A stretch of 64,000 nt of DNA from Patescibacteria group bacterium (lineage in GTDB: Bacteria; Patescibacteriota; JACPGU01), in contig JAKLDG010000001.1 of the NCBI GenBank assembly GCA_022703645.1, positions 338,814-402,813 on the forward strand, written 5' to 3'. Numbering within the stretch: the first letter of the stretch is position 1; each line of letters opens with the position of its first letter. The position numbers and the translations under genes were made by a program. The notes beneath the pieces are model-generated. The model searched no databases and had not been told where the DNA came from. It was given only the letters and a program-made list of their open reading frames with translations. This document shows, in pieces, positions 42,789 to 61,151 of this stretch.

Positions 42789-42919
42789 TATTTTATCGAA
42801 CTGAAAAAAACAAAAAATAAGATATAAAGTACCTTGTTTATATTTCAATTTATAGTATATTTTAATAGACCGATATTTAACTGTGGATATCTTTATTTTC
42901 GTATAGATAAAAAGCCCTC

Positions 42920-45001
42920 ATGATAATAAAAAAGAAAGTAAAAAATGAATTTTTCTTCGGATTTATTTCTGTTGCTGTTCTTGTTCTTTTTTTGGGAATG
43001 CTTTCCATGTTTGCCGCCAGTAATGTCGATACCACGGTTAATATAATTTCAGCTGCTCCGGCAATTACTTTTTTTACTGCGACGCCAACATCTGTGAATT
43101 CGGGGGATTCATCGCTATTAACATGGAATTCTACTAATACAACATCTTGCAATAGTAGTGATTTTGCAACAGGCGGCGCGATTAGCAACTTGATCGGTGT
43201 TCCAACTGGCGCGTTAACCACTGCAACTACCTTTACTATTACTTGTTCTGGTCCTGGAGGTCCTGACGCAACTAGTAGCGTTACGGTAACAATCTCCGCG
43301 GGTGGCGGACCATCTTATACTTCTACCCCCCCAACTCCAACTGTTCCAAAAATTACTTCTTTTATTGCGACGCCAGCTCTAGTTGATTCTGGCGGATCAT
43401 CCGTGCTTTCGTGGACTTCGCAGGATGCCACTTCTTGTAGCAGTCCTGATTTTTCAGTTGGATCAAGCTCAAATACAAACGGTTCTATTACATTAAATAA
43501 TATTACTTCAAATAAAATATTTAATCTAATTTGCACTGACGGAATCAGCTCAGACATGGCTAGCGTGGAGGTAAAGATTAATGTGGTTCCAATATTAATC
43601 GCAAATAAGACTTTGGTTGCCCCAGGTGATAGCATTTCTTTGAGCTGGACTGCGGCCGGGGCTGCAGTATGTACCGCTTCGGGAGTTGCTGGTTGGTCCG
43701 GTAGCAAATTTGTTCCAAGCGGAGCGCAAGATGTGGTTTTACCAAGTTCCCCGGGTATTTATGTTTATACACTAACTTGCGATGAAAGTTCAACTTTTGT
43801 AACGATAAACGTTGGATTGCCGCCGGTTTTTATCAGTTTTAATTCAAATAAAACTACTACTGCTCCCAGTGATACCGCATCACTCGCTTGGGATGTAACC
43901 GGAGCTGACACCTGCGAGGCTTCCGGAGCATCTGATTGGAGCGGAAACAAATCTTTATCTGGTACAAGTAGTATAACTTTACCAGACACTATTGGGTTTT
44001 TCTCATATAAATTAAGCTGTTCAAATGTATTTGGCTCTATCAGCCGTACGATCAATATCAATGTTTCAACTGCTGAAAAACCTCCAATTGAAGAACAACC
44101 TCCAATGCCAATTACTAACCCAATAGAAGTTACTAAACCAACTGAAGAAACATTTGGCGGCGCAGGCGGCGGTATTGAAGTAACGATGACAACCGAAAAT
44201 CCTCAGATAGAAATTGGGGCATTGGGAACAACCAAAATATCCTGGACTTCCAAAGGAGCTGATAGCTGCAGCGCTTCGGGTGTTGACGGCTGGGCAGGAA
44301 ACAAGCCAGTTAATGGAAGTGAAACTGTTACAGTTCCGGCTGAAACCGGAATCTATACTTATGTATTGACTTGTGAAAATCAAAAAGGACAAAAAACAGT
44401 TGCTTATGCTAAGATTACCGTAACCGAACCAAATAAAATTGAGGGTTTTTTCAACATCATAGAATCAGAAATCATTCCGGAAGCAGCGGTAACGTCTGGT
44501 GAAGTTTTGCAATATGTTCCAACCCCATCTGAAATAATAGACAAGCTAGGCCTGACGGAAGCTTTTTTGATTTCTGGTCCGCCAAAAACATTTGCGCAGA
44601 ATGTTTTATCCACTATCATTGCCGCTTTGTTGTTGTTGATGGTCCTTTACTTATCGATTTTATACTATAAAAATTCCAAAAACTGGGGTTATATCTTTGA
44701 TGCAGATTCAGGTCGCGCCATATCGGACGCAAAAATTGAAATCCGCAAAGCGTCCAATGGCGAGATACTCCAAACGACTTTATCCGACCATAAAGGAAAG
44801 TTCAGATTTATTTTAAAGAATCTTAAAGATGGGGATTATATTGTTGCGGTTGAAAAAAGAGGGTATCTTTTTCCATCCAAAGTTTTTGGAAGAAAGACTA
44901 CAATACCAAAATTAGTCTATCTCGGAAGAAAAACTAAATTGATTATTAAAAAAGGATTTAAGATGAAAATTCCTATCGACCCAATATCAAAACAAATATG
45001 A
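42920..45001 (+). CDS. Surface protein: five Ig-like Cys-containing repeats, one TM, C-terminal carboxypeptidase-regulatory-like domain
   Basis: Five repeats of the pattern SLxW...C.ASG...GWSG.K...G...YxLxC. TM LSTIIAALLLLMVLYLSILYY, then GYIFDADSGRAISDAKIEIR...HKGKFRF. Confidence 0.7.
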   Translation: MIIKKKVKNEFFFGFISVAVLVLFLGMLSMFAASNVDTTVNIISAAPAITFFTATPTSVNSGDSSLLTWNSTNTTSCNSSDFATGGAISNLIGVPTGALTTATTFTITCSGPGGPDATSSVTVTISAGGGPSYTSTPPTPTVPKITSFIATPALVDSGGSSVLSWTSQDATSCSSPDFSVGSSSNTNGSITLNNITSNKIFNLICTDGISSDMASVEVKINVVPILIANKTLVAPGDSISLSWTAAGAAVCTASGVAGWSGSKFVPSGAQDVVLPSSPGIYVYTLTCDESSTFVTINVGLPPVFISFNSNKTTTAPSDTASLAWDVTGADTCEASGASDWSGNKSLSGTSSITLPDTIGFFSYKLSCSNVFGSISRTININVSTAEKPPIEEQPPMPITNPIEVTKPTEETFGGAGGGIEVTMTTENPQIEIGALGTTKISWTSKGADSCSASGVDGWAGNKPVNGSETVTVPAETGIYTYVLTCENQKGQKTVAYAKITVTEPNKIEGFFNIIESEIIPEAAVTSGEVLQYVPTPSEIIDKLGLTEAFLISGPPKTFAQNVLSTIIAALLLLMVLYLSILYYKNSKNWGYIFDADSGRAISDAKIEIRKASNGEILQTTLSDHKGKFRFILKNLKDGDYIVAVEKRGYLFPSKVFGRKTTIPKLVYLGRKTKLIIKKGFKMKIPIDPISKQI

Positions 45002-46476
45002 AAAAAACAACGTTTAAAAAAATAGCCTACTTATTTTTGTCCACATTGATTTTTTGCGCTCTGATGACGCCTTTTAGCAGCTATGCGGCTGATTTGGCCA
45101 AAAAAAGCGGCAACAATTTTGGTATTACAAGAATTTCTATCGCGGATACTGATTATCCTTTAACTATTTCTATTTCTTCGGATAAAAATATAGTATTTAA
45201 TAATGGTTTAGACATAGCAAATTTAAAAGTTAGAATCGCAAATAGTAAAAAACAAGGCATTTCTGGAATTAATATTAAATTCAGTTCAGGCGGTAGGGAT
45301 ATAATTAATCCACCGGAAAATACCACAGACAATAATGGCATTGCATATTTCAAAGTCAGTTCTACCCAAGAGCATATCTCCAATTTTCAATTTAGCCTTA
45401 GAGACCCTACCAGCGGTGAGATTTATTCAAGTAATGTGGTAGCAATAAAGTTTTTGAGCCAAAGCCGCTTTAGTATGACCGTTAACTCTATCGCGGATTT
45501 CAAAAATAATACCGCCACAAAAGAGGCTGCTGCTTATGTTGTCGCTCCTGCGGCTACAGCTGTAATCGCCGTAAGCGCCTTTTCTCCAATTATTAATTTA
45601 TTAAGTTCTATTTTCCCATATTTGAATTACCTATTTAACGTAATATTACAGTTTTTTGGTATCAGAAGAAAACAAAAACCTTGGGGAATACTTTATGACA
45701 GCATGACAAAAGAGCCGATTGATCTTGGCACTGTCAGATTATTTGACGCAAAAACAAAAAATATCGTTCAAACCGCAACAACCGATAAGTCCGGAAGGTT
45801 TGGTTTTCCACCTTTATCAGGCAAATACTATTTAACAGCTGCTAAATACCAGTTTGGGTTTCCTTCAAAATTACTAAAAGGAGCGGTAGTTGACGGTAAA
45901 TATCACGGTTTATATTTCGGAGATAAGTTTAATTTAAAAAAGAATCAAAAACTTACTATTTCTGTACCAATTGACTTAGCAACCGCGGTAACTGCTCGGT
46001 TAAGATTGATAGACAGACTAAAAGCATTTTCAGAAAAGATATCGCGTCCTTTTTTGGTGGTAAGTCTGATGGTCACGTTGGTTATGCTTTGGATAAATAC
46101 AACCCTATATAATGAAATATTGATCATACTATATATATTGATGATTCTTACTATGAGGCGCATTCGCACATCAGCCATTATTCCATGGGGTATTATTTAT
46201 GATTCAAAGACTAAAAAACCGCTCAAGAGTATGCCGATTAAAGTATTTGATAAAAAATACAATAAATTGTTGGAAACGCGCGTCAGCGATGAAGCTGGCA
46301 GATTTACTTTCATATTACCGAAAGGGGAGTATTATTTCAAAATTGCTGATTTTCATTATCAGATAGATTTAAAAGCAAAAGAGTTAGGCGGCAATAAAAA
46401 CTATCATGGCGAGATTTTCAAGGTAGAAGAGAATGAGGTTTTAAGGTTTAATATTCCATTAAAAAGTTTAAAATAG
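44998..46476 (+). CDS. Membrane protein: signal peptide, Ig-like domain, TM blocks alternating with two carboxypeptidase-regulatory-like domains
   Basis: ATGA start/stop overlap with the upstream gene. WGILYDSMTKEPIDLGTVRLFD...KSGRFGF and WGIIYDSKTKKPLKSMPIKVFD...EAGRFTF each follow a TM segment. Confidence 0.7.
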   Translation: MKKTTFKKIAYLFLSTLIFCALMTPFSSYAADLAKKSGNNFGITRISIADTDYPLTISISSDKNIVFNNGLDIANLKVRIANSKKQGISGINIKFSSGGRDIINPPENTTDNNGIAYFKVSSTQEHISNFQFSLRDPTSGEIYSSNVVAIKFLSQSRFSMTVNSIADFKNNTATKEAAAYVVAPAATAVIAVSAFSPIINLLSSIFPYLNYLFNVILQFFGIRRKQKPWGILYDSMTKEPIDLGTVRLFDAKTKNIVQTATTDKSGRFGFPPLSGKYYLTAAKYQFGFPSKLLKGAVVDGKYHGLYFGDKFNLKKNQKLTISVPIDLATAVTARLRLIDRLKAFSEKISRPFLVVSLMVTLVMLWINTTLYNEILIILYILMILTMRRIRTSAIIPWGIIYDSKTKKPLKSMPIKVFDKKYNKLLETRVSDEAGRFTFILPKGEYYFKIADFHYQIDLKAKELGGNKNYHGEIFKVEENEVLRFNIPLKSLK

Positions 46477-46500
46477 CATGAGCAATAAAAACAAAAAAAT

Positions 46501-49500
46501 ATGATTGTGGTAAAGAAAAAGAAAATACCTTTAAGACCGTTTTTAATCCTCTTAGTGTTAATAGCTGGGTTTACTTTGAGTTTGGGTTTAAAACCAAATG
46601 AAAAAATAAAAGCGGCTTATTCTAATCCTTGCAAGACAGCTGGCACGTATGCTGGTTATGTAGTTGACGCGAATCTTAATGTTATTATTCCGGCTTACAA
46701 TAATGCTGTGTTTGGTGACACTTTCTATGATAGTACCAGCAAAGAAATTCATTGTAAAAGCATAACGATAGAAACGGGAGCGACTTTAGATATATCGCCA
46801 AAAACTACCGGTGCAAGTAAAACAGGCGGCACAAATTATAGAAGATTGGTTCTTGATGGTGATTTGAATATCGCAAGCGGTGGAACGCTAAATCTATATG
46901 GCGGCAATATATATAATACCGGCGGACTCAATGGCACTGGGATAACAAATGATGGAAAAGGATATGGTATGAATGTTATGGTTGGTGGAAATGTTTTGGT
47001 TGAATCCGGCGGATGGATATCAGCTGATGGCAAAGGGTATGAACATAGTAAGGGGCCGGGAGCAGGTGTGGCTGAACCCGGTTCACAAGGCGCTGCATAT
47101 GGTGGGGCTGGTCCGGATGGAACCAATTGTTATGGGAAATATTACGGTTCGGTTTCTGACCCGATAGAACTCGGCAGCGGCAGTAGTTTGGGAGTAGGAG
47201 GCGGAGTAGTTGATATAACTGCCGCGGGAACAATATTAATTCGCGGCGTAGGCAAAATTACGGCAAACAGCATTGGAGAGGGATCGGGCGGTTCAGTAAG
47301 ACTCAGCGCCAATACTATTAGTAGTACAATTGACGGCGTAAATATACCTTCTATTACAGCAAATGGCGGTAGTGGGTCTTATTACAGTGGCGGCGGCAGA
47401 ATCGCGCTTTTTTATAATTCATCAAATTTTGGCGGTGATATCAAAGCTATTGCTAACGCCTATGGAGGAGCTGGCACTGTATTCAAGAAAAAAAATATCG
47501 AGGCTTATGGTGATTTAATTATTACAAATAATTATCAGGATCATACCGATAACCCTCCGGACTATACTCCATATGCATATACAAAAATTGGCAAAACAAA
47601 AATCGATTCTGGCACATATAAGAATATCACAGTTAATAAAAGAGCAAACGCTATTATTGAATCTAGTAATATAGTAAACATCAATGGTGGTACTTTTGAA
47701 GTAAATAATTCCAAACTTGAAAATAAAGGCACTTTAGCTTCACAGACTTCCGCAGAAAAATTTCTGGCGAAAAATACCGCTCGGATACTTAATAGCGGTA
47801 CAGGGTTATTTAGCCTGTCCGCGAACTCAAACGCTATATTTGACGGCATAGACACTTATTTTGAGAACCAAAATAATATTATCCAAAATTTCGCCAATTT
47901 AACTATCTCTAACGGGGCTGTCATGAGCCATGCCGTCAATGATGCTACCGGTGTGACAAATTGTCTTAGGAATTCAATTGATAATCCAGTTGGCGGCGCG
48001 ATCCCTCCTTGCGAATATAAGGATTGGGGTGATGGCTATGGGAAACATTGGAATCAAAAATATACCTTAAGGATAAATGCCACAAGTGTTAATATTGATA
48101 ACAAAAGTTCGATAGATGTTTCACAAAAGGGATTTCAAACATTACCTGGAACATCAGGTTTTGGGCCGGGAGGGTCAAGTACGGCTTACTCAATCGGTGG
48201 TTACGCGGGAGGTTCTTATGGTGGCAGAGGTGGTAACGATAATACTGGGGGAGTAAGCGCAGATATTTATGGCGACTCGGATGGAGACCTGAATAATCCA
48301 AATGATCTGGGAAGCAGCGGTGATACCGGCTATACTGCCGGAGGATTAGTAAGAATAACAGTTTTGGGCGATATTGTTAATAATGGCTCTATATTATCAA
48401 ATTCAGGTACGGTTTCAAATGGTTTTGCCGGTGGGTCAGGAGGAGGCATAAGATTGGATGCAGACCGGATTCTCGGAGCTGGAAAAATTTCTGCCAACGG
48501 CATGCCCGGAACGATAGATCTTGCGAAAGGCGGCGGAGGAGGCGGAAGGATCGCGATCACATACAAAACCACAAAAGATTTTTATGGTCCAATTACCGCT
48601 TATGGAGGGTCTACTGATGGGGGACCCGGTACGATACTTTTTGCAAACAATAGCTCGGGAGCCTTAATTGATAAAGAACTTGTTATTTCTAATTCAGTTT
48701 TAAACGACAATCCAACCAAAATAGGAGGCGGTACGTATAAAAATATTACCGTAAAGAATACCTCGCCAACTCTTACTGACCTGACTTTAGCCGCAATCGT
48801 TTCTGGACAATCCGTTGTCATGCAAGATGGTGGGAATTTTGAAGTTAACCAAACTAATTTAACTAATAGCGGAACTATTTCTTTATTAGCCGGAACGTCA
48901 AATTTAGTTATAAAGGGAAAATCAAATTTTATTAATATCGGACCTACCGCCTCTCCTGGCATTAACGCGAATAGTACTTCTAAAGTTATTTTGGACAATG
49001 CCAATTTTGAAAATAAGAATAATATTGAACAGAATTTTGGCAATCTTTATATCCAGAATGGAGCAATATTAACGCATACTCAAAATGATTACTTAACGGT
49101 AAATTGCGTGAATACTTCCTGTACCAACCAAGACCTGGGTGATGGCAATGGAATGCATTACAATCAGGCTTATACATTAAGAATACATGCAAACAATGCT
49201 TTAATTGATAAATTTAGCGCTATTAATGTTGATGGCAAGGGCTATGACATGGGTAGAGGACCGGGTAATAATGGGTCTGCTAATTCTGCCGGAAGTTATG
49301 GCGGAGCTGCGTCAAGCGGCGACAGTACCTATGGTTTAGCGGATAACCCTAATGATTTGGGCAGTGGAGGTTATTCCGGTAGTTATGGTGATAATACCGG
49401 CGGCGGTTTAGTAAGAGTTAGGGCAGACGGTAATATAACAGTTGATGGCTTTATTTCTTCGGATACAACATCTGCCGGATCTTTTGACGGCGCTTCAGGA

Positions 49501-52500: not shown

Positions 52501-55500
52501 GGTGTTGTTGTCTGTAAAGGATTTTCATGCACTGATCAAAATGTAAATGTAAATACTTTGCCAACCCAGTATTATTATAAAATTTATGCTCAGTATGGAA
52601 CCGCGGCTCCCTTCAGTTATTCTGTCGGTTCAACGGCAGTAAGCGGAAATCCTAACCCGGAAAACCCCCAAAAGTTTGATAATACCAATGAAGCAACACC
52701 AAGTGTAACACTGGACAATCTATCAGGACCTTACACGCCTCTTAATACATTTAAGATTGCAAATTATCTTGTCTGGAAAGCAACAACTCCGGCTGATTGC
52801 TCAGGGGCTTGGACGCCAACCAATGGAGCTGACTATTCAGGAGTGCAAGGAACTGGAAATATCATTTACAAAAACCCAGCAGCGCCAATATCATATATTG
52901 ATACTGCAGTTACAAATGGCGTTGGTTATTGTTACAAAATCTTTGTCCAATATAATGGTGAAACAATCAATACTACTGATCTAATGTATTCTTCTGGATT
53001 AAGTCTTTGGACTCAACCGCCAAATCATAATCCAACAATTAGCGTAAATAGCATCACCCAAACGATCGGCACGGATAATGTGGTAATTAACTTTAATGTA
53101 AATGATATTGATCCATCTGATAATGGCAAGCTTTCTGTTGGCTTTGCTGTTACAAATCCGGTTTCAGGATGCAGTATTAGCACTTTAACCGGACCAATAA
53201 CTAACCTCGGTGTCGGAGCTCATAGCGTTACTTGGACCGCCACTACCACTAATGGAACCGCGGGGGATTGTCCAGGCGTAGAAATGTTAGCCGGTTCTGC
53301 TCAACTGACAGCCACTGTTTCCGATTTTATCGGAGCCACCGGTACCGCTAGTCCAACTTTCTCTCTTGACACCAAAGCTCCCATTGCAAGTTCCAGCCTT
53401 ATTTTGTCCTCCAAAAACAGCAACTCCATTACTGTCGCTACCGGAGCTACCGGGGCTACTGATGGAAACATAAAAACTACCGCTGCCTATAAAGTCTATT
53501 ACAAGCAAGGATCAACGGTAGACGAAGTAAGCGGTACGCAAATACTACCAAATATTAATAGTTATGTTGCGGGACAGATATTTACTGCTTCCTCGCTAAT
53601 AACTAACCAGCAATATTCATTTAATATCTGGGCTTATGATAACTATGGACATAAAACTGCTGCTACGGTATTAAATGTCAGCACAAAAGGAAAATCTGTT
53701 ACAGGATTTACAGCTATAGTTCAAGGTATGAGAGTCCATCTGAGTTGGGACGCAATGCTGCCGGCGCCAGATAAGCATCTGGTTATTCGTAAGAAAGGAA
53801 CATCCGCGTCTACTTGGACGCCAACAGATGGTATTGGAATATATGCTGCTGGCAACACGGTAGATGCAGATACGATAGTAGTTTACCATGGCACAGGCGT
53901 CACTCTGGATGATGATGCAGTTGATGGAGCAGCCTATACCTATACTATCTTTGCCAACTATTCTGGAAATCTATATTCAGAGGGGGTTTCAGCTCCATCG
54001 ATAACACCGAATGCTCTGAACGCGTCGTTATCTGCTCCTGCCTATATACCAAATGGATCAAATTATGATATCGCACTCAACTGGGTAGCCCCCACACCAA
54101 GTTACAGTTTACAAAAATATGTAGTAGTTAGAGAAGTTGGGTCTCCTACTTGTTTAATCGAATGGACGCCAACCAAGGATAATAACTATAATGCATTAGA
54201 TCCAACCGGCTTTACTAATGAAGAAATTATCTATTCCGGAACCGGAACCACTACTACTGATAATATGGGAGGAACGGGAGTTTCTTCTGGTACAAATGTT
54301 TGCTATAAGATCTTTACTCAATATCTGGGAGATGATTTAGCGGTTCCAACAAACTTAGTTTATTCCGCTGGAATTGCCGCTACCTATGTACCGCCAAATC
54401 TGCCTCCAGAGATAGAGATTGGTTCAGTCACAGCGCTACAAACTACCGGAACTGAAAATATTGTTATAGCTTACCGTGTTAGAGATTCCGACTCAACCAA
54501 TTTGAATATTACATTTAGCATGATTGATCCGGGAGGCTCCACTTGCCAAATGAATTTAACTGATAATTTGGCGGGGATTGATGGCACTTACTATACTCAT
54601 ACCGCTACTTGGAATGCAGGGCTGGCAGGAGAGTGCCCGGGATTTGAAGTAACAAATGCTGTTATCCAAGTAACTGCCAGCGATAGTCTTAATTCTGTTT
54701 CGCAAAACTCCGCTCCATTTCTGCTTGATACTCTATCCCCAAGGCTTCCAACTCCAACTGTTTCTAACTTTAATTTAACTAATTTTTCATCAACAGGAGA
54801 TAAGATATTCTTCAATCTAGGATCTAATTCAACAACTGATACTAATGCGCTTAACTACAAGATATACTATGCTTCTGGGGGAAGTGTTGATGAAACAGGA
54901 ATACTCATAACAGGAGCTCCTATAGCATTTACTCCTGGAGCTGCATATTCGGTAACCGGATTAACACCGGGACAAAACTATACATTTAATATTTGGGCTT
55001 ATGATAAATATGGGCATAAAACTTCTGCGACTTCCGTAACATATTCAACTATTGTGCCTGCTCCGGCAAGCTTCTCTGTAACTCCGCATGGAATGAGATT
55101 ATCACTTACTTGGACGGCTCCTGTCGGTGGAACCCCAGACTATTATCTGATAGTTAGAAAAGCTAATTCAGATCCAATAATAGCTCCCGCTAATGGTTCT
55201 ACATACAACCTGGGGGATATTTTGAGCGGGGGAATGGTAGTCTACAATTCAACCGGGACAAGCCTTGACGATGATAATATTGATGACGGTCCTTACTATT
55301 ACCGAATTTATGCGCATTATTCAAATGGCAATTTCTCACCAGCCTTGGCTGGCAATGCGATTGCAGTGGCGGAAGGACCAAATACATTCAGCGCAACCTC
55401 AAGCCCAGCGCCAGTAGTCACATACATAGACACTCCACCAACAAATAATTTCAGTTTCGAGAACTATCTTATTTGGAAGAAAGAACAACCTAGCTGTACT

Positions 55501-57534
55501 ACTGATGGCAATCTGGTAGACGGTACGGTATATAATTATCTTGATTCAGTAGATGGGGGAACGATTATTTATAAATCAAACATTGATCCTAATGGTATGT
55601 CTGATATCTCAACTACAATAACTGGCCATACTTACTGCTACAAGATGTTCGTAGAGTATAATGGAGAAACTACTAATACTATCTATTCTAATGAAATGTA
55701 CTTTCAAATCACTCCTCCAAATAATCCTCCGACTCTTTCCGCTCTTTCTGTTGTTCAAACAATAGGTAGTGACGATGTTGTAATCGGATTTACTATTAAT
55801 GATCCGGATGGAATTGACGCTGGCAATCTCTCAGTCGCTTTATCAATTGTTAACCCTCCAGAAGGATGCAGTATCGGTACAATATCTGGTTCTTTGACTG
55901 GTTTATCAAATGGTAGTTATTCGGTTACTTGGACTGATGCCGATACTACTTGCCCTGGGCTTGAATTATCTAATGCTGGTTTAGAGTTTATTGCTCACGA
56001 CCTGATAGATTATTCATCTGCGCAGATAAGCAGTTTTTTACTCGACACTAAAGCGCCTACACTAATAGAGGGGCTAACATATGACCCACCAACCGCAGAT
56101 ACTATTGTAGTACGCCTAAGCACCAATACATTCTTCTTAAATCCTTTGAGTGTTGATCAAAATCTAAAAGGAGGAGGAAATAGCTTTAAGATTTACTACA
56201 AACAAGACAGTACCGTTTCAGAATCCGATACACAATTAGCTGCCTTTGATAATTATATCTTAGGGCAAGACTATACGGCCACACCATTAGGATCTAATTC
56301 ACAATATTCATTTAATATCTGGGCTTATGATAACTATGGACATAAGACAGCATATACTGATCCAGTCAAGCCAACTACCAGCGGTCTCAACGGACCACCA
56401 GTAGTACAATATGTTGCTCAACCAGTCCAAGCTGCTGGTACTGGTAATATCAATTTCAGTTTTGAAGTAAAAGATCCAGACTCGGATGGTTTAACTATCA
56501 CATTCTCACTAATTAATAATCCAGTCGGTTGCAGTATCTCTGGCGTTACTGGGTTTACCAATCCTGTATCCTCCACCAGTACTTTTGCAACAATTATCTC
56601 CAGCTGGAATGCGAAATTAACTTGTGATGGAGCGGATCAGTCTGACCTCAAGATCAGAATTAGCGCGGATGATGGAAACGGACATACAGCAACTATTGAT
56701 TCAGATCCATTTACTATCGATACGAAAAATCCTGTCTCTCCAGGAAACCTATCATTCCCAGCAGGAACTACTTTTGCGAATCAGGTTAGTGTAAAGACAA
56801 ATACTATTTCCGGTAGCGATACTAATGCCGATGATTGGCATGTATATAGGGTTGATGGAAATACTTTCCCAACGGATCCATTCTCTCCTGCTCTAACTCC
56901 AATTAAATTATATGATCCTTATATACCAGATGACGTATTTATTGATTCGGGGTTAACGCCAGATTCTGATTATACTTATAATATCTGCCTGCATGATACT
57001 TTTATGAACTTTACCTGCGCAACATCGCAAACTATTCATACACCAGCTTCAATATTAAGCTTTAATATTCTTGGTATTGCCAGTGGAATATCGGTTGGAG
57101 TTGAAACAACTAATATCACTACTACTTCTACAACAATTCCTTTTGGCAGTACTACAGTAGGGGATACAAAGGTTGGAGCGCTTGATCTACAAGGCACAAC
57201 AAATCTGGTTAATGGATATACTATTGATATCAGACAAGACCAAGATTTAACATCAGGAGGCAACACTATTCCTGCCCTTACCTCTACTAACGCTAGTCCG
57301 CAAGTATGGCCACCAACTCCAATTAGTTCTTTCTTTGGATATTCATCAATCAATCTTTCCAGATTTTCAAATGGCGTTAATTGGGCAGGATTAACTTTGT
57401 CTGACCTACCGATAGTAACACAGATAAACGGGACTCATGATGATGATGTTTTATTCAAATTATCCACCAAGAGTCCTCAACCAGCAGGAACTTATCAAAA
57501 CACCATTACTTTCTCAATAATGGCGAATCCGTAG
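46501..57534 (+). CDS. Giant (3677 aa) secreted/surface protein: three Gly-rich beta-helix-like blocks, two LamG-like domains, FN3-like repeats, four Cys-pair/Asp-rich modules, distinct C-terminal domain
   Basis: Single uninterrupted ORF with an N-terminal TM/signal. LamG-type motifs GTGAFTIDTWIYPKS...YMDEFRISKGVARW and GAGDFTIDFWANFSD...YLDEFRIIKGRAAW. The repeated motif FNIWAYD(N/K)YGHKT occurs three times. Confidence 0.85.
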   Translation: MIVVKKKKIPLRPFLILLVLIAGFTLSLGLKPNEKIKAAYSNPCKTAGTYAGYVVDANLNVIIPAYNNAVFGDTFYDSTSKEIHCKSITIETGATLDISPKTTGASKTGGTNYRRLVLDGDLNIASGGTLNLYGGNIYNTGGLNGTGITNDGKGYGMNVMVGGNVLVESGGWISADGKGYEHSKGPGAGVAEPGSQGAAYGGAGPDGTNCYGKYYGSVSDPIELGSGSSLGVGGGVVDITAAGTILIRGVGKITANSIGEGSGGSVRLSANTISSTIDGVNIPSITANGGSGSYYSGGGRIALFYNSSNFGGDIKAIANAYGGAGTVFKKKNIEAYGDLIITNNYQDHTDNPPDYTPYAYTKIGKTKIDSGTYKNITVNKRANAIIESSNIVNINGGTFEVNNSKLENKGTLASQTSAEKFLAKNTARILNSGTGLFSLSANSNAIFDGIDTYFENQNNIIQNFANLTISNGAVMSHAVNDATGVTNCLRNSIDNPVGGAIPPCEYKDWGDGYGKHWNQKYTLRINATSVNIDNKSSIDVSQKGFQTLPGTSGFGPGGSSTAYSIGGYAGGSYGGRGGNDNTGGVSADIYGDSDGDLNNPNDLGSSGDTGYTAGGLVRITVLGDIVNNGSILSNSGTVSNGFAGGSGGGIRLDADRILGAGKISANGMPGTIDLAKGGGGGGRIAITYKTTKDFYGPITAYGGSTDGGPGTILFANNSSGALIDKELVISNSVLNDNPTKIGGGTYKNITVKNTSPTLTDLTLAAIVSGQSVVMQDGGNFEVNQTNLTNSGTISLLAGTSNLVIKGKSNFINIGPTASPGINANSTSKVILDNANFENKNNIEQNFGNLYIQNGAILTHTQNDYLTVNCVNTSCTNQDLGDGNGMHYNQAYTLRIHANNALIDKFSAINVDGKGYDMGRGPGNNGSANSAGSYGGAASSGDSTYGLADNPNDLGSGGYSGSYGDNTGGGLVRVRADGNITVDGFISSDTTSAGSFDGASGGGIKLIANSILGSGSISASSNLTSGNIGGGGRISLIATQKNYSGTVSVNRGGTGANYGTIYDSLAIPTTYGPSATPLTYNTKLSNNTPYIKADSSATTIGVDEGNAVSTGYTPDSDTSLLLKMDNWGDGLIYDSSAKSIPVIKYGTTSFSDTVLKTGTHSLLFNGSTGRLIPDGTFTSNFQYGTGAFTIDTWIYPKSVTTLQTIYSQKNSATPTTNASSLQITTTGQLKYTENGVSIISPVSTIKLGSDVGWQHVALVRDNLGVERLFYNGSVVGTQSSTYSKFSDVGIGCLYQSTNTLFYNGYMDEFRISKGVARWTSDFIPLSDDGNWEKLNLRATRTNPSSDTKLLLHLDGTNGSTTYTDSSPSNHTILRYNTPTISTNTSKFGGASGAFPRVTSPYFDYIYANDNVNDWTFGAGDFTIDFWANFSDNVRQGVLAIGSGAYAPIAFEVVSNNLNVYMTSNGSSWDIASGQPVGQTFGPVTPGVWVHYALTRNGNTFYLFVNGTTVNSFMSSLSLWNNSGALYIGQYFGSVTAFKGYLDEFRIIKGRAAWSNNFTPSTTPYEIYDDPSFNGTVDIGIIDNLAGEYVFSGCNGANCTFSDSKVTARFINGIANLAVKVKDKRDGQIKHHGFSGLKINSVSNVSYINNNQITGAIEIQDRTPERSIPSGPAPAGSITKGTAGATIFPMGAGFSIINNSKGTSQSQQDLGGNLVVRGPLASAPYRLYLDKNIMYKRGDYLNSDGTISSVATDYQVVCVNTADYTQTKIRCNDDLSTSAIPSGLRNYGIYTFNKTYNFYTQNETSNYSAPSISQVLIPASNPTVPVISPLTITPTNGKLNLSWNNPIDNIGQTKTLIVRGIDSIPTFVPSDGTDYNTWSNTTVTGEEMIYDSTNVGAGSEVKNFDDANVFFGTRYCYTIYAQYIGYIYSVGTSACSTLTSIIDPPVNPTITIQGMMINIGWTAPPSGNPDNYLIVRKKGTTEPNWNPTGETADYNIGDTVGDGVVVCKGFSCTDQNVNVNTLPTQYYYKIYAQYGTAAPFSYSVGSTAVSGNPNPENPQKFDNTNEATPSVTLDNLSGPYTPLNTFKIANYLVWKATTPADCSGAWTPTNGADYSGVQGTGNIIYKNPAAPISYIDTAVTNGVGYCYKIFVQYNGETINTTDLMYSSGLSLWTQPPNHNPTISVNSITQTIGTDNVVINFNVNDIDPSDNGKLSVGFAVTNPVSGCSISTLTGPITNLGVGAHSVTWTATTTNGTAGDCPGVEMLAGSAQLTATVSDFIGATGTASPTFSLDTKAPIASSSLILSSKNSNSITVATGATGATDGNIKTTAAYKVYYKQGSTVDEVSGTQILPNINSYVAGQIFTASSLITNQQYSFNIWAYDNYGHKTAATVLNVSTKGKSVTGFTAIVQGMRVHLSWDAMLPAPDKHLVIRKKGTSASTWTPTDGIGIYAAGNTVDADTIVVYHGTGVTLDDDAVDGAAYTYTIFANYSGNLYSEGVSAPSITPNALNASLSAPAYIPNGSNYDIALNWVAPTPSYSLQKYVVVREVGSPTCLIEWTPTKDNNYNALDPTGFTNEEIIYSGTGTTTTDNMGGTGVSSGTNVCYKIFTQYLGDDLAVPTNLVYSAGIAATYVPPNLPPEIEIGSVTALQTTGTENIVIAYRVRDSDSTNLNITFSMIDPGGSTCQMNLTDNLAGIDGTYYTHTATWNAGLAGECPGFEVTNAVIQVTASDSLNSVSQNSAPFLLDTLSPRLPTPTVSNFNLTNFSSTGDKIFFNLGSNSTTDTNALNYKIYYASGGSVDETGILITGAPIAFTPGAAYSVTGLTPGQNYTFNIWAYDKYGHKTSATSVTYSTIVPAPASFSVTPHGMRLSLTWTAPVGGTPDYYLIVRKANSDPIIAPANGSTYNLGDILSGGMVVYNSTGTSLDDDNIDDGPYYYRIYAHYSNGNFSPALAGNAIAVAEGPNTFSATSSPAPVVTYIDTPPTNNFSFENYLIWKKEQPSCTTDGNLVDGTVYNYLDSVDGGTIIYKSNIDPNGMSDISTTITGHTYCYKMFVEYNGETTNTIYSNEMYFQITPPNNPPTLSALSVVQTIGSDDVVIGFTINDPDGIDAGNLSVALSIVNPPEGCSIGTISGSLTGLSNGSYSVTWTDADTTCPGLELSNAGLEFIAHDLIDYSSAQISSFLLDTKAPTLIEGLTYDPPTADTIVVRLSTNTFFLNPLSVDQNLKGGGNSFKIYYKQDSTVSESDTQLAAFDNYILGQDYTATPLGSNSQYSFNIWAYDNYGHKTAYTDPVKPTTSGLNGPPVVQYVAQPVQAAGTGNINFSFEVKDPDSDGLTITFSLINNPVGCSISGVTGFTNPVSSTSTFATIISSWNAKLTCDGADQSDLKIRISADDGNGHTATIDSDPFTIDTKNPVSPGNLSFPAGTTFANQVSVKTNTISGSDTNADDWHVYRVDGNTFPTDPFSPALTPIKLYDPYIPDDVFIDSGLTPDSDYTYNICLHDTFMNFTCATSQTIHTPASILSFNILGIASGISVGVETTNITTTSTTIPFGSTTVGDTKVGALDLQGTTNLVNGYTIDIRQDQDLTSGGNTIPALTSTNASPQVWPPTPISSFFGYSSINLSRFSNGVNWAGLTLSDLPIVTQINGTHDDDVLFKLSTKSPQPAGTYQNTITFSIMANP

Positions 57535-57575
57535 AAACAATTAATCAAGAAAACAAAAAAAACAACAAATCAAAT

Positions 57576-58289
57576 ATGCTAAAAAAAATATCTACAACCC
57601 TTCTCATTACTGCTTCCATATTAATATTCTCCAACCAAGCCTTGGCGCAAGAAACTACTAACACTATCAGCTCTTCTGTTTCTCCAGCGTTAATTAGTCT
57701 CAAATTAGATAAAGGAGAAACTAAAAGCTCTTCTTATGAGTATGTCAATGGTACTGATGATAATCTTATAATTACTATTAGCACTAGAGCCTTTGCTCCT
57801 AGTAATGGGGAACATGGAACCCCGCTATTTATAGACAAAGATGGAAAAAAGGTTACTTCACCCTTAACCAGTTGGATTAAATTAAATGAGAGTAGTATGA
57901 GTGTTAAGAAAGGGGAGAAAGCAACTGTAAACTTTCAGATTAATGTTCCTTCTGATGCAAAAGAAGGCAAATACTTTGCAGCTATATTTAATACAGAAAC
58001 TGATGGGGGGTCAGATAGCGGTTCATTAGTAAAGAAAGAGTTGGGAGTTACTCTGGTTGTTGAAGTTCTCGCCCCCAAACCAATACCAGGCACTACTACA
58101 ACCACATGGCAGAAAGACAATCTTCTTTCCTATATTATTTTTGGTGCTGCGTTATTGGCATTACTATTATTAATTGCTGCGATATTTAAGAGGAAAAAGA
58201 AAACTCCAAAATTCTTCCCGGAAGAGGAAAGGAAAGAGTTAGTAAAGAAAGTAAAACGAAAAGTAAAAATCACCAAAAATAAAAAATAG
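57576..58289 (+). CDS. Secreted beta-sandwich-like protein with C-terminal TM and Lys-rich tail (DUF916-like, inference)
   Basis: Signal peptide, LTSWIKLNESSMSVKKGEKATVNFQINVPSDAKEGKYFAAIF, TM LLSYIIFGAALLALLLLIAAIF, then KRKKK. Confidence 0.55.
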   Translation: MLKKISTTLLITASILIFSNQALAQETTNTISSSVSPALISLKLDKGETKSSSYEYVNGTDDNLIITISTRAFAPSNGEHGTPLFIDKDGKKVTSPLTSWIKLNESSMSVKKGEKATVNFQINVPSDAKEGKYFAAIFNTETDGGSDSGSLVKKELGVTLVVEVLAPKPIPGTTTTTWQKDNLLSYIIFGAALLALLLLIAAIFKRKKKTPKFFPEEERKELVKKVKRKVKITKNKK

Positions 58290-58321
58290 CTCTAATTCGC
58301 TCTAAATGATATAATATAGCA

Positions 58322-59179
58322 ATGAGCAATCAAGACGATGTCCGCATAAATATTTTAGGAATTCCTATCGATCGGGTAGGTTATATTGATGTTTTAGATA
58401 AGATTGAATACTATATAAAAAAAGGCGGGTATCACTATATCGCAACGGTTAATCCAGAGTTTATTATGCACGCGGCGCAAGATAGCGAGTTTAAAAAAGC
58501 ACTACAAAATTCGAACTTAAATACAGCTGATGGCGTCGGAATCGTATGGGCAAGTAAATATCTTGCGAAAACTCAAAAATCAAATCTCAAATCTCAAAAT
58601 TTAAGCATCACTTCGCGATTTATTTATAAAATCAAAAAGATATTCTGGTTGAAAATTTCTTTGTTCTCAATTTTATTTAACCGTCGTTGGCTCTATTCTG
58701 AAATTCCGGAGCGTGTTACCGGAGCAGACCTGATCTGGAAAATAGCAAAAAAAGCGCAAGATGAAGGCTGGAAAATTTTCCTACTTGGAGCAGGGGAGGG
58801 AGTCGCGGGAAACGTTGCGGGAAAATTGAAATCAAAATTCCCGAAAATTAATATTGTCGGTACTTATTCAGGCCGCCCGGAAGAAGAGGGGATTGCTGAT
58901 AGAGTTGCCGGATATGAACCGGATATTTTGTTTGTTGCTTTTGGCTCTCCTCGACAGGAAAAATTCATTTATAACAATTTGGATAAGCTCAATGCAAAAG
59001 TTGTTATTGGAGTCGGTGGAACATTTGATTTTATTGCTGGGCTAGCAAGAAGAGCGCCAAGATTTATGAGGAGATTCGGAATTGAATGGTTATGGAGACT
59101 TGTCTGCCAACCATTTCGAATCGGCAGAATTATCAACGCTTTTCCAAAATTTGTCTGGAAAGTTTGGAGGGGTAAATAA
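58322..59179 (+). CDS. WecB/TagA/CpsF-family glycosyltransferase with ~40-aa insert
   Basis: VNPEFIM, NTADGVGIVWA, ERVTGADL, FLLGAGEGVA, LFVAFGSPRQE, RAPRFMRRFGIEWLWRL. Confidence 0.8.
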   Translation: MSNQDDVRINILGIPIDRVGYIDVLDKIEYYIKKGGYHYIATVNPEFIMHAAQDSEFKKALQNSNLNTADGVGIVWASKYLAKTQKSNLKSQNLSITSRFIYKIKKIFWLKISLFSILFNRRWLYSEIPERVTGADLIWKIAKKAQDEGWKIFLLGAGEGVAGNVAGKLKSKFPKINIVGTYSGRPEEEGIADRVAGYEPDILFVAFGSPRQEKFIYNNLDKLNAKVVIGVGGTFDFIAGLARRAPRFMRRFGIEWLWRLVCQPFRIGRIINAFPKFVWKVWRGK

Positions 59180-59220
59180 TTTGACAAGTAAATTTGGATG
59201 TTGTAAAATAGAAATATAAT

Positions 59221-59245
59221 AGAGTAGAAATACTCTGTTTTTTTG
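59221..59245 (+). terminator. Rho-independent terminator of the 42.9-59.2 kb operon
   Basis: AGAGTA-gaaa-TACTCT followed by a T7 run. Confidence 0.6.
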
Positions 59246-59262
59246 TTTTTAAAATTAATACG

Positions 59263-59340
59263 AAGAAAAAATCTATACCAATAATTAATATACTATAATA
59301 GGATTTTTTCTTAAGAGGAGGAATTTTACGAAAGCTGGAG
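59263..59340 (+). promoter_or_regulatory. Recurrent leader element, copy C
   Basis: AAGAAAAAATC (59263-59273) pairs with GATTTTTTCTT (59302-59312), then AAGAGGAGGAATTTTACGAAAGCT. The loop contains TATAAT. Confidence 0.45.
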
Positions 59341-59393
59341 CAAACAAAATTTTTTAAATTTTGGATGCGAAAGTGAGAGTAAAATTGTGACGA

Positions 59394-60602
59394 ATGAACG
59401 AAGAATTTATTTCCGCTCTCGAACAAATCGCTGAAGAGAAAAAAATTAGCAAAGAATCTATTCTGGAGGCTACTGAATCAGCCCTAGCGGCAGCATACCG
59501 TAAAGATTATGCAAAGCCGTCCCAGACAATCAGATGTAAAATCGACCCCGTAAAAGGTACTACAGAATTCTGGTTGGAGAAGAAGATTGTCGAAGAAGTT
59601 GCCGACGAAAACGCAGAAATATTGCTTGCTGACGCGCTAAAAGAAGACAAAGATGCGGTTATCGATGGTGTTATCAAATACCCGCTGCCAACCAAAGAAG
59701 ATTTTGGCAGAATAGCAGCGCAGACTGCAAAGCAGGTTATTATCCAGAAGCTTAAGGAGGTTGAGCGCGAAGTTGTATTTGATGAATACAAAACACTTGA
59801 AGGCAAACTTTTAAATGGAGTTGTCCAACAGATTGAAGGCGGAAATATTATTGTTGATTTGGGAAGAGCAAATGGCGTTATGTTTCCATCAGAACAAATC
59901 ACCGGTGAAAATTACCGGGTGGGACAAAGAATAAAAGTACTACTTCTACGAGTTGAACAAACAAACAAGGGTCCGCAAATTATGGTTAGCCGCGCGGCTG
60001 ATGATGTTATTAAATATTTATTTATGATTGAAGTTCCAGAAATTGAAGCTGGGTCAGTCGCTATAATGGGAATCGCAAGAGAAGCGGGGGTAAGAACAAA
60101 AATGTCAGTGCGAGCGCTTCAGGAAGGTGTTGACCCAGTTGGATCTTGCGTTGGACAACGTGGCACACGCGTACAAGCAGTTCTTGGTGAAATTGGCAAC
60201 GAAAAAATAGACATTGTGCTCTGGAATGAAGAACCGGAAACATATATTGCAAATGCATTATCTCCGGCCAAAATAGATAGTGTTAAATTAAATAAGAGAG
60301 CAAAAGAAGCTTTAGTTATTGTAAACCCAGACCAATTATCTTTAGCAATCGGTAAAAACGGACAAAACGTTCGCCTTGCCGCTAGATTAACTGATTGGAA
60401 AATAGATGTTATTGAAGTTGGTTCTGAGGCGGCAAAAAGTTTTAAAGAAGATAAAGATGAAGAACAAGAAAAGAAGAAAGTAAAAAAAGAAGAAAGTAAA
60501 AAGAAAAAGAAAAATATAAAGGAGGGAAAAGAGAAAGAACCGGAGAAAAATAAGAAAGAGAAAAAGTCTGCAACAAAGAAAAAAGAAACTGAGAAAAAAT
60601 AA
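59394..60602 (+). CDS. nusA: Transcription termination/antitermination factor NusA with Lys/Glu-rich tail
   Basis: S1 domain GVVQQIEGGNIIVDLG. KH domains VGSCVGQRGTRVQAV and AIGKNGQNVRLAARLT. Confidence 0.95.
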   Translation: MNEEFISALEQIAEEKKISKESILEATESALAAAYRKDYAKPSQTIRCKIDPVKGTTEFWLEKKIVEEVADENAEILLADALKEDKDAVIDGVIKYPLPTKEDFGRIAAQTAKQVIIQKLKEVEREVVFDEYKTLEGKLLNGVVQQIEGGNIIVDLGRANGVMFPSEQITGENYRVGQRIKVLLLRVEQTNKGPQIMVSRAADDVIKYLFMIEVPEIEAGSVAIMGIAREAGVRTKMSVRALQEGVDPVGSCVGQRGTRVQAVLGEIGNEKIDIVLWNEEPETYIANALSPAKIDSVKLNKRAKEALVIVNPDQLSLAIGKNGQNVRLAARLTDWKIDVIEVGSEAAKSFKEDKDEEQEKKKVKKEESKKKKKNIKEGKEKEPEKNKKEKKSATKKKETEKK

Positions 60603-60629
60603 AACACTATAAAAGGAGGTTACCTTTTA

Positions 60630-60851: not shown

Positions 60852-60872
60852 ACCGAAAAATTAGAATAGGAG

Positions 60873-61091: not shown

Positions 61092-61112
61092 GATTCAAAG
61101 ATATAATTTCCT

Positions 61113-61140: not shown

Positions 61141-61151
61141 TCAATGAAATA

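Follow-up and report, generated by a model that had tools for sequence, protein, structure and literature searches.

How a cell with a tiny genome might display a protein of 3677 residues at its surface, and keep hold of it, is the question raised by a locus on an 867,473-bp contig of a Patescibacteria-group MAG. The whole stretch analysed, hereafter the window, spans 64 kb and contains five consecutive plus-strand open reading frames: g1 (42920-45001, 693 aa), g2 (44998-46476, 492 aa), g3 (46501-57534, 3677 aa), g4 (57576-58289, 237 aa) and g5 (58322-59179, 285 aa). The first two share an ATGA overlap at 44998-45001, read directly in the sequence, and the coordinates give spacers of 24, 41 and 32 nt between g2 and g3, g3 and g4, and g4 and g5, respectively. 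This layout, from which a previous sequence-only reading had deduced a five-gene operon, is borne out by the ORF coordinates and the sequence. We consider it rather probable that g1 to g4 form a surface cassette, independent of g5, whose g3 product is a fibrillar adhesin made of a single polypeptide and docks on the g4 product by β-strand complementation.

Gene order in related loci indicates that the conserved unit consists of the four genes g1 to g4 (42920-58289), without g5. In relatives, a DUF5652 gene precedes the cassette and an NMD3-like gene follows it, the order being DUF5652-g1-g2-g4-g3 in locus L030, DUF5652-g1-g2-g3 in L034, and (g2)-g3-g4-NMD3-like-RluA-PBP5-RNase III in L004, L028 and L029. 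In the window, the DUF5652 (167-601) and NMD3-like (670-1221) genes are adjacent, their junction (601-670) being an 'empty site' at the position held by the cassette in relatives, and RluA, PBP5 and RNase III genes follow the NMD3-like gene as they do in L004, L028 and L029. The cassette has therefore been relocated, and g1 to g4 are transposable as a block. Its left boundary was set by synteny, g1 coming directly after DUF5652 in L030 and L034, and its flanks in the window are a PIF1-like helicase gene on one side and WecG-NusA on the other. The 131-nt A+T-rich spacer 5' of g1 (42789-42919, plus strand), presumed to be the promoter region of the cassette and the left edge of the relocated block, contains a TATAGT hexamer as its sole -10-like element and no TGnTATAAT. 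The five-gene operon is thus kept in part: comparison with related genomes shows synteny and preserved linkage for g1 to g4, while g5 lies outside the conserved set and adjoins the cassette in this genome alone. The broader proposal, that the locus serves the cell surface specifically and centres on a giant modular protein accompanied by membrane partners, is supported, with synteny in related genomes.

The g5 product does belong, as initially labelled, to the WecG/TagA/CpsF glycosyltransferases (Glyco_tran_WecG, PF03808: E 4.6e-55, 186.4 bits for a cut-off of 27.4; TIGR00696: 138.8 bits for a cut-off of 69). It does not reach the equivalog cut-off of TarA, EpsA or WecG, and its nearest NCBIfam models are TarA/EpsA. 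Enzymes of the WecG/TagA family transfer sugars to undecaprenyl-diphosphate-linked wall-polymer precursors and are not known to act on proteins, which argues against a dedicated glycosylation helper. The idea of a five-gene operon in which this enzyme would glycosylate or otherwise serve the giant protein draws on the g4-g5 gap, which, being only 32 nt long and devoid of a terminator, makes read-through possible, on the position of the sole terminator-like hairpin, after g5, and on the extra density at PamA Ser356, which suggests that the pilins of the Pam pilus can be modified (bioRxiv 10.64898/2026.03.03.709456). The hairpin with its T-run (59218-59250, plus strand), at which transcription of g5, and of the cassette in case of read-through, would stop, confirms the terminator placed earlier at 59221-59245: in positions 59218-59239, a GAAA loop caps a 9-bp stem, with U7GU5 directly after it (dG -9 kcal/mol, z -2.8), a fold equalled by only 1 of 200 shuffles. 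It had been missed by the consensus terminator scan because its stem is A+T-rich; that scan found no terminator-like site in any cassette spacer, and terminator-like sites are not enriched across the region (15 found, 14.5 expected from shuffles). Against a joint function, g5 is missing downstream of the relatives' cassettes whose downstream side is visible (L004, L028 and L029, where the NMD3-like gene is found), and cassette genes lie near none of nine WecG relatives (L019-L027). Besides, the g4-g5 spacer holds a perfect extended -10 element, TGATATAAT (58307-58315, plus strand), 6 nt before the g5 ATG, a geometry that fits a leaderless transcript. The TGnTATAAT motif occurs at 10 sites in the window for 5.0 expected, and nine of these are intergenic although intergenic DNA makes up 9.8% of the window (binomial P 7e-9), a distribution that marks it as a bona fide promoter signal in this genome. 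The five-gene version is very unlikely, synteny having largely refuted it, and g5 would be an independently promoted wall-polymer glycosyltransferase that the cassette met by chance at its new insertion site, a positional neighbour outside the cassette.

Regarding g3 itself, its product has the architecture of a giant secreted modular protein, predicted to be a fibrillar adhesin, with homologues of 1330 aa in L004, at least 969 aa in L028, 2463 aa in L030 and at least 3314 aa in L034. The N-terminal, presumably distal end carries two tandem Gly-rich repeats of ~370 aa (aa ~100-1060; 46798-49680), detected by self-comparison (300-495/683-876 and 504-712/874-1060, 35-41% identity); this region has no Pfam match at E 0.5, and its sequence pattern is possibly that of a β-helix-like fold. 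Two Laminin_G_3 (concanavalin-like lectin) domains come next (aa ~1100-1560; 49798-51180), matched by PF13385 in two stretches (E 9.9e-26) and also visible as an internal repeat in the self-comparison. They precede a stalk of diverged Fn3/Ig/cadherin-like super-repeats (aa ~1760-3510; 51778-57030), made of about 3.5 units of ~450 aa with 28-42% identity in the self-comparison, in which Pfam detects fn3 (E 4e-8) and, weakly, Cadherin_4, and which shows no tandem repeats at the DNA level. The long repetitive β-domain stalk with distal lectin-like and Gly-rich modules is shared with the fibrillar adhesins of monoderm and diderm bacteria, whereas the anchoring proposed for g3, by a pilin-type domain and a DUF916 partner, is different. 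Such a device is not known from other fibrillar adhesins, which are anchored via LPXTG/sortase, T1SS retention modules or autotransporter barrels.

The anchoring end is the C-terminal tail of g3 (aa 3516-3677; 57046-57531), for which the AF2 model of the last 162 residues is a β-sandwich with a pLDDT of 95.4. The top 50 Foldseek matches of this model in the PDB are mostly the TasA fibre and chaperone-usher pilins, and donor-strand-exchange pilins thus appear as the nearest solved folds. At the sequence level, g3 falls into a tail family (profile A6, local E 1.8e-42) related to the pilins of the Pam pilus, a CPR pilus described in Ca. Mycosynbacter amalyticus (Troman et al., bioRxiv 10.64898/2026.03.03.709456) and represented in NCBIfam by NF058581 (CPR_Pam_pilin_C) and NF058579 (PamT). 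NF058581 matches 60 of 73 tail-family members (best 5.5e-12) and the PamT model 12 of the 73, while PamT has no match in g1 to g5 and the match of g3 to NF058581 is weak (E 2.4e-5, 24.4 bits for a curated cut-off of 55, over model positions 2-58 of 148 alone). Since it is the family that matches NF058581 while g3 scores below the curated cut-off, the homology between the g3 tail and the Pam pilin C-terminal domain (CTD) is supported transitively, below the score of curated membership. In addition, a conserved strand of consensus P.L.F.V in the A5/A6 alignments, ILSFNILG in g3 (model strand E4-10), sits immediately N-terminal to the CTD, where Pam pilins have their donated linker; by analogy with them, the g3 strand could also be donated (bioRxiv 10.64898/2026.03.03.709456).

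Loci bearing this tail domain regularly possess a DUF916-like gene. It is immediately adjacent to all eight distinct large tail-bearing proteins examined (window, L004, L028, L030, L008, L009, L031 and L033) and is also present in 6/6 loci selected by the tail domain alone. In the window this partner is g4, whose product begins with a signal peptide, continues with a single Ig-like domain of the DUF916/WxLIP type and ends with a C-terminal TM helix (aa 181-207) followed by a Lys/Arg-rich stretch; the gene adjoins the g3 homologue in L004 (again with a 41-nt gap), L028 and L030. Its match to PF06030 (DUF916/WxLIP_PGBD) lies just under the 27.3-bit cut-off (E 2e-5, 25.1 bits), but the profile built on g4 gathers 1412 relatives, of which 35 of 73 sampled match PF06030, and hhalign aligns g4 with Firmicute WxLIP at 97.9% (E 5e-13) and two-domain CPR forms with WxLIP at 98.7% over 261 columns. 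The top PDB sequence match is EfmWxLIP1 (E 0.006 with profile A4, 1.4e-7 with profile A2). The label of DUF916-like, TM-anchored protein given to g4 in the first place therefore holds, and these data identify g4 as a probable one-domain, membrane-anchored WxLIP/DUF916 homologue, without the second domain (DUF3324) that related CPR proteins have. Of the searches that had been suggested, remote homology, run on g4, returned WxLIP/DUF916, and structure, run on the g3 tail, returned pilin-type folds; the former statement that no accessory gene has an assigned role is outdated by this homology of g4, and by the place of the g3 tail in a Pam-pilin CTD family described in 2026.

The WxL/Csc cell-surface clusters of Lactobacillales and Listeria, reportedly described by Siezen in 2006, offer a first model for such a pair. 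Like the cassette, they combine a large modular protein, carrying adhesive domains at the distal end and a docking domain at the C-terminus, with an adjacent TM-anchored DUF916 protein of which g4 is a sequence homologue, and their docking is predicted to rely on a strand of the DUF916 protein completing the sandwich of its partner, as proposed for WxLIP and WxL (PMC10599100). A true WxL/Csc complex, in which g3 would be a peptidoglycan-bound 'large WxL' protein, would also suit the cluster logic, where one domain stands alone in a small protein and recurs at the C-terminus of a large one, beside a DUF916 protein anchored by a TM segment, and the resemblance of the last g3-tail strand (AGTYQNTITFSI..P) to the second WxL motif region. 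However, the g3 tail as a WxL domain gives 0 Pfam matches at E 10, PF13731 is found in 0/73 family members, the family matching the Pam pilin model instead, and the tail contains no Trp-x-Leu motif; when 12 candidate WxL-region sequences, of which the four checked match PF13731, were taken from Firmicute WxL loci, hhalign against them reached 5.7% over 31 columns. Moreover, WxLIP comprises DUF916 (PGBD), DUF3324 (HBD) and a TM helix, whereas g4 has the DUF916-type part and the helix without DUF3324; the cassette has no LPXTG protein and, by tail-domain HMM search, one tail-bearing protein and no small paralogue; and the phylum is different, more than 91% of WxL being reported from Firmicutes (Hassan & Williamson, PMC9772566, PMC10599100). 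A genuine WxL complex is hence extremely unlikely, and the cassette is best read as a variant of the Pam pilus and WxL logic.

The other two members of the cassette are membrane proteins. g1 encodes an N-terminal signal/anchor, five repeats of ~83 aa, each with two Cys 32-36 residues apart, a TM segment (aa 557-585) and a C-terminal CarboxypepD_reg domain (Pfam, E 1.2e-7), which the predicted topology places in the cytoplasm. The repeats do exist, but their 'Ig-repeat' label finds no profile support, residues 40-550 having no Pfam match even at E 0.5. The g2 product starts with a signal peptide and a Big_1 ectodomain; besides TM segments, it has two CarboxypepD_reg/SpaA-like modules, each preceded by a basic stretch and a PWG motif, in agreement with the two carboxypeptidase-regulatory-like domains formerly assigned to it. 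L030 (E 1.4e-77) and L034 (E 8e-143) have full-length g1 homologues at the corresponding place, and g2 homologues occur in L004 (E 1.8e-64), L030 (E 3e-134), L034 (E 3e-164) and L008. Among 12 metagenome loci (11 distinct) chosen through g2 alone and with enough upstream sequence, a DUF916-like gene lies just upstream of the g2 family in 11, and a small Pam-CTD protein is also upstream in 8 (7 distinct) of these; the twelfth is L034, in which the giant is present and the sequence ends before any g4 position. The g1/g2 family thus appears to accompany pilin and DUF916 modules regularly.

These associations raise the question of whether g3 could be the tip adhesin, or a side-arm-bearing pilin, of a polymeric Pam-type pilus, with the major pilins elsewhere in the genome and g4 as a transient chaperone. 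Both systems are found in CPR bacteria and involve Sec signal peptides, a C-terminal truncated-Ig-type pilin domain after a conserved strand, and a partner of Ig fold, encoded alongside, that has its TM helix at the C-terminus; neither requires an outer-membrane usher. Pam pilins assemble by donor-strand exchange into an extracellular helical filament, and complementation of these pilins by the TM-anchored chaperones is predicted (bioRxiv 10.64898/2026.03.03.709456). The relationship of the g3 tail to the Pam pilin CTD family is in line with a polymeric pilus, and the linker-like strand kept before it would allow polymerisation as well. Besides, L008, L009, L011, L031 and L033 resemble complete pam operons: large tail-bearing proteins occur there together with two DUF916-like genes and several small paralogues of pilin type, gene sets that match PamA/B/E/T and PamC/D; two-domain DUF916-like forms are present in related loci, and small Pam-type pilins could lie outside the window in the 867-kb genome. 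However, g3 is the sole match when window ORFs of at least 60 aa are searched with tail-domain HMMs, and neither the 64-kb window nor the cassettes of L004, L028, L030 and L034 contain a small tail-domain protein, whereas the Pam operon has the two-domain pilins PamA/B/E and the tip pilin PamT. Compared by description, the chaperones PamC/PamD are PapD/FimC-like, with two domains and a C-terminal TM helix, while in the g4 subfamily the second domain, which shapes the binding cleft of the PapD type, has been lost; since PapD-like chaperones and WxLIP both have a second domain, g4 may act like neither. Pam pilins measure 25-55 kDa, whereas the g3 domain lies at the end of a multi-domain protein of 3677 aa. 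The cassette further includes two conserved membrane proteins with CarboxypepD_reg modules, it was relocated as a self-contained block of four genes, and its flanks (PIF1-like helicase; WecG-NusA) do not show the ATP synthase neighbourhood of Pam. In the text of the Pam preprint, a co-localised 'tail fibre-like protein' is mentioned, but no component of the adhesin, DUF916, WxL or carboxypeptidase-like kind (bioRxiv 10.64898/2026.03.03.709456). A polymeric pilus therefore seems rather unlikely.

With the single-polypeptide adhesin retained as the preferred reading, g3 would be exported by Sec and reach well beyond the cell wall, exposing at its distal end the Gly-rich repeats and the two LamG lectin-like domains, borne by the long Fn3/Ig-like stalk and ending in the ~160-residue pilin-type β-sandwich of the CPR Pam-pilin CTD family. 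g4, proposed as membrane anchor or chaperone for this tail, would be fixed in the cytoplasmic membrane through its C-terminal helix and, as predicted for WxLIP-WxL and for Pam chaperone-pilin pairs, would insert a β-strand into it (donor-strand complementation), so that the adhesin would be tethered non-covalently and its tail probably held on the membrane by its neighbour. g1 and g2, with extracellular Ig-like parts and, by topology, transthyretin-like CarboxypepD_reg modules on the cytoplasmic side, probably form the membrane platform of the assembly. In fold class, the g3 tail resembles donor-strand-exchange fibres (Fim/Pap, Csu/CupE archaic pili, TasA, archaeal bundling pili, CryoSeek TLP-1), and FimH, PapG and CsuE are likewise two-part adhesins, with a receptor-binding part and a C-terminal pilin domain. 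The likeness to chaperone-usher pili concerns the subunit fold only, these having an outer-membrane usher and a soluble periplasmic PapD-like chaperone where the cassette has a membrane-anchored partner; profile searches detect no usher-like protein among g1 to g5, and Patescibacteria are generally regarded as lacking an outer membrane. On this reading, g3 would substitute, in one polypeptide, for the polymeric shaft and tip of a pilus, and attachment to a host is a reasonable guess.

Finally, we tentatively suggest, as a possible though doubtful extension, that the Firmicute DUF916/WxLIP proteins and the CPR Pam 'chaperones' are one ancient family of donor-strand partners. If true, this family would be a monoderm counterpart of the chaperone-usher pathway, and the cassette would stand apart within it by having, in place of the polymeric shaft, a giant adhesin of one polypeptide, locked permanently onto a one-domain DUF916 anchor, with g1/g2-type proteins and their cytoplasmic transthyretin-like modules as an assembly or anchoring platform, the functional analogue of an usher or a tether.

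An ORF re-check of the locus, which lies on the 867-kb contig of a Patescibacteria-group metagenome-assembled genome, recovers the five plus-strand open reading frames of the sequence-only reading, hereafter g1 (42920-45001), g2 (44998-46476), g3 (46501-57534, encoding a giant protein of 3677 residues), g4 (57576-58289) and g5 (58322-59179), among which g2 to g4 are labelled 'hypothetical' in the public record, where the locus is marked by proteins HRY60377-HRY60381. As read in the sequence, an ATGA at 44998-45001 is common to the g1 stop and the g2 start, and the g2-g3, g3-g4 and g4-g5 spacers measure 24, 41 and 32 nt, respectively. No terminator-like site is present in the spacers between g1 and g5, and an Rfam scan of positions 42000-61500 returned no match. 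The terminator reported after g5 is present as a hairpin (59218-59239) followed by a T-run (-9 kcal/mol, z -2.8); it is A+T-rich and was overlooked by a consensus terminator scan. Besides, a near-consensus TTGACA-17-TAAAAT promoter-like site, located directly after the g5 stop (59181-59250), is aimed into this hairpin; it could drive a very short transcript, be part of an attenuator ahead of nusA, or have arisen by chance.

These five genes had been read as one operon in which g5 would serve as a glycosylation helper. Synteny indicates that the unit consists of g1 to g4 (42920-58289): this set is kept together in relatives, whereas the five-gene set including g5 is not. In five related contigs, the cassette occupies the site between a DUF5652 gene and an NMD3-like gene, the order being DUF5652, g1 (E 1e-77), g2 (E 3e-134), g4 and a 2463-aa g3 homologue in L030, DUF5652, g1, g2 and a g3 homologue of at least 3314 aa in L034, and (g2), g3 homologue, g4, NMD3-like, RluA, PBP5 and RNase III in L004, L028 and L029. 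In the window, the DUF5652 gene (167-601) adjoins the NMD3-like Zn-ribbon gene (670-1221), with RluA, PBP5 and RNase III coming next, and the site between them is empty (601-670). Since the two flanking genes are adjacent and followed by the same downstream genes, the four-gene block has left that site. Its present position, at a distance of 42 kb, is flanked by a PIF1-like helicase on one side and WecG-NusA on the other, with break points exactly before g1 and after g4. A search for junction repeats, covering the borders of the cassette and the empty site, detected just A/T-rich low-complexity matches. The empty-site region also contains a TGATACAAT box (663-671) and, at about 619-650, a hairpin with a T-run. 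As the NMD3-like ORF exceeds its 171-aa homologues by 12 codons, its true start is probably downstream of 670.

The assignment of g5 as a TagA/WecG-type glycosyltransferase is borne out by a strong WecG match in Pfam. Nevertheless, g5 is absent from the old cassette site and from all related cassettes with visible downstream flanks, and no cassette gene was seen near the nine WecG relatives examined. Its 32-nt upstream spacer holds TGATATAAT, 6 nt ahead of the g5 ATG. The extended -10 motif TGnTATAAT occurs at ten sites in the window, nine of them intergenic for an intergenic share of 9.8% (P 7e-9), with boxes at 2330, 20559(-), 21194(-), 22306, 26430, 30558(-), 37673, 40578 and 58307, and the boxes checked lie upstream of co-oriented genes. 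This enrichment, together with the position of the motif in the g4-g5 spacer, indicates that g5 very probably has its own promoter, whose geometry would fit a leaderless transcript, with read-through from g4 possible. Leaderless mRNAs in this organism are suggested by three boxes located just 6-10 nt before a start codon, those of the genes starting at 21183, 30548 and 58322. The core intuition of the sequence-only reading is correct, while its operon boundary and its supposed glycosylation helper are wrong.

The giant g3 protein starts with a signal peptide, followed by about 1000 residues (within 46798-49680) containing two Gly-rich repeats of about 370 aa without Pfam match at E 0.5, two LamG (Laminin_G_3) domains recognized by Pfam, a stalk of about 1750 residues made of diverged Fn3/Ig/cadherin-like super-repeats (28-42% identity; fn3 in Pfam), and a C-terminal tail of 162 residues. 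The repeats were delineated by blastp self-comparison with the query segment masked in the subject; no tandem repeats were found in g3 at the DNA level, and residues ~1560-1900 gave no Pfam match at E 0.5. The Gly-rich repeats, like the two-Cys repeats of g1, represent uncharacterised domain types, located where the adhesin is presumed to act.

Between g3 and its shorter relatives, conservation is highest in the tail. A profile search with it retrieved 109 proteins, nearly all of them secreted CPR proteins of 150-290 aa, and a precomputed Pfam annotation exists for one only. Our own Pfam scan of 73 members of this tail family found no family in more than four of them, and WxL in none. The NCBIfam model NF058581 'CPR_Pam_pilin_C' (release 20) matches 60 of the 73, and the PamT model 12; g3 itself is matched weakly, with a score below the curated cut-off of the Pam pilin model. 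AlphaFold2 gave a pLDDT of 30 with a 3-sequence alignment and a confident model of the tail with the 73-sequence family alignment. The nearest solved folds to this model (Foldseek, PDB) include the CryoSeek TLP-1b fibril, CsuA/B and CupE, an archaeal bundling pilin, the Fim, Pap and Cfa pilins, and TasA. The sequence pattern had suggested a WxL identity, which was rejected by Pfam and by hhalign. For the latter, 12 candidate WxL-region sequences were drawn from plasmids of Enterococcus, Lactococcus and Lactiplantibacillus, and four of them were checked against PF13731; the PDB copy searched contained no WxL structure.

The small protein g4 had been described as DUF916-like, and PF06030 does match it, although below threshold (25.1 bits versus 27.3). 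Its profile retrieves 1412 relatives, of which 35 of 73 sampled carry PF06030, and it aligns by hhalign at 97.9% with six Firmicute WxLIP proteins taken from plasmid records; for its two-domain CPR relatives, this value reaches 98.7% across both WxLIP domains. EfmWxLIP1 is the sole meaningful PDB sequence match of the g4 profiles. The second domain has been lost in g4 and its closest relatives, in which the signal peptide and TM helix are retained along with a basic tail. A DUF916-like gene directly adjoins each large tail-bearing protein examined (8 distinct loci), and was found in all six loci selected through the tail domain alone. A profile search of the genome contigs with the g4 alignment returned no relatives. 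The g4 family possesses a conserved N-terminal strand, SVSPAxIxL, with an alternating pattern as in the pilin linker P.L.F.V, which may serve as a lead for docking.

In the proposed mechanism, g3 would be exported by Sec, and g4 would capture its tail at the membrane by beta-strand complementation. The remainder of the chain would reach outward as a fibre whose far end, the site of any host contact, would carry the lectin-like and Gly-rich modules, and g1 and g2 would form a membrane platform. The g3-g4 docking is proposed purely by analogy with the WxLIP-WxL and Pam chaperone-pilin pairs, for which AlphaFold predicts strand insertion (PMC10599100 and bioRxiv 10.64898/2026.03.03.709456, respectively). 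The main rival, in which g3 would be a subunit of a polymeric pilus with pilins encoded elsewhere in the genome and g4 a transient chaperone, draws support from the linker-like strand retained in g3, but we regard it as less likely than capture of the g3 tail by g4.

Regarding g1, its 'Ig repeats' exist as five units of about 83 aa with paired cysteines (43037-44569), while their Ig identity is not backed by any profile, this ectodomain giving no Pfam match at E 0.5. The two carboxypeptidase-regulatory-like domains of g2 correspond in Pfam to two CarboxypepD_reg/SpaA-type modules, accompanied by Big_1. In both proteins, each CarboxypepD_reg domain (g1 aa 590-690; g2 aa 230-320 and 400-490) forms a module with the TM segment and the basic stretch, ending in PWG or NWG, that precede it. 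Apart from its signal peptide and ectodomain, g1 has just one further TM helix, so that its CarboxypepD_reg domain must be cytoplasmic; the same logic, combined with the positive-inside rule, puts the two g2 modules in the cytoplasm as well. Such a placement is unusual for the transthyretin-like CarboxypepD_reg fold, which is normally extracellular.

A metagenome contig search with the g2 sequence alone gave no loci, and a 3-sequence g2 alignment gave 15, selected purely through the g2 family. Among the 12 with sufficient upstream sequence, 11 (11 distinct) have a two-domain DUF916-like gene directly upstream of the g2-like protein, and 8 (7 distinct) also a small tail-domain protein upstream; L034, the twelfth locus and the nearest relative of the window cassette, ends inside the giant, before any g4 position. 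This recurrence makes the g2 family a regular third component of the system, and it may be the 'tail fibre-like protein' of the neighbourhood network in the Pam preprint. The g2-like proteins of these loci comprise about 720-1234 aa (mostly 1040-1234), with a variable ectodomain carrying PT-HINT (pretoxin-HINT), DUF4215 Cys-rich repeats or Fn3. Loci L036-L047 include minimal three-gene clusters of, in this order, a small tail-domain protein, a two-domain DUF916 protein and a g2-like protein of ~1040-1234 aa (e.g. L044 5780-11203), whose variable ectodomain also comes with a purple-acid-phosphatase N domain.

In the Pam pili described for Ca. Mycosynbacter amalyticus (bioRxiv 10.64898/2026.03.03.709456), the pilins possess a linker strand, which is donated, in addition to an N-terminal and a truncated Ig-like C-terminal domain; the system also has a tip pilin, a membrane tether and PapD-like chaperones bearing a TM helix at the C-terminus. 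The locus resembles the Pam pilus and the WxL cluster in its proposed working and is a full member of neither: unlike the former, it has no small pilins and no two-domain chaperone, and, with regard to the latter, none of the tests run identifies its tail as a WxL domain. Neither DUF916 nor WxL is mentioned in the preprint, and no paper combining Patescibacteria with DUF916 was found in the searchable literature, relative to which the use of a Pam-type tail in a giant fibrillar adhesin, the one-domain partner g4, the conserved CarboxypepD_reg membrane proteins g1/g2 and the link, drawn from sequence comparison, between CPR partners and WxLIP are new. In a related locus, L009 1691-6820 (same protein in L010) encodes 1709 aa with a Peptidase_M23 domain (peptidoglycan endopeptidase), LamG and the Pam-type tail, a DUF916-like gene coming next. 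This protein resembles a wall-degrading enzyme carried by the anchoring scaffold, an arrangement that would be in keeping with predation or episymbiosis. In L031, a Pam-like cluster is followed after ~5 kb by a sortase gene (14582-15484); the window cassette showed neither a sortase nor an LPXTG motif.

The attachment of ultra-small CPR/Patescibacteria cells to their hosts is a central question of the field and, to our knowledge, type IV pili alone had been implicated in it before 2026. The present locus suggests a second format of the Pam-type donor-strand surface system, in which each giant fibrillar adhesin, between 1300 and over 3600 residues long, has a DUF916-type membrane partner of its own; in some relatives, the same scaffold also bears a peptidoglycan hydrolase domain. 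The g1/g2 family adds a third conserved component, neither named nor discussed in the published Pam model, and the four cassette genes, about 1.8% of the 867-kb genome, are now open to annotation. The g3 tail and the g4 ectodomain offer a concrete testable pair. Finally, sequence comparison connects the CPR system with the WxLIP proteins known from lactobacilli, enterococci and Listeria and, since WxLIP docking is itself just predicted, findings in either group would inform the other.
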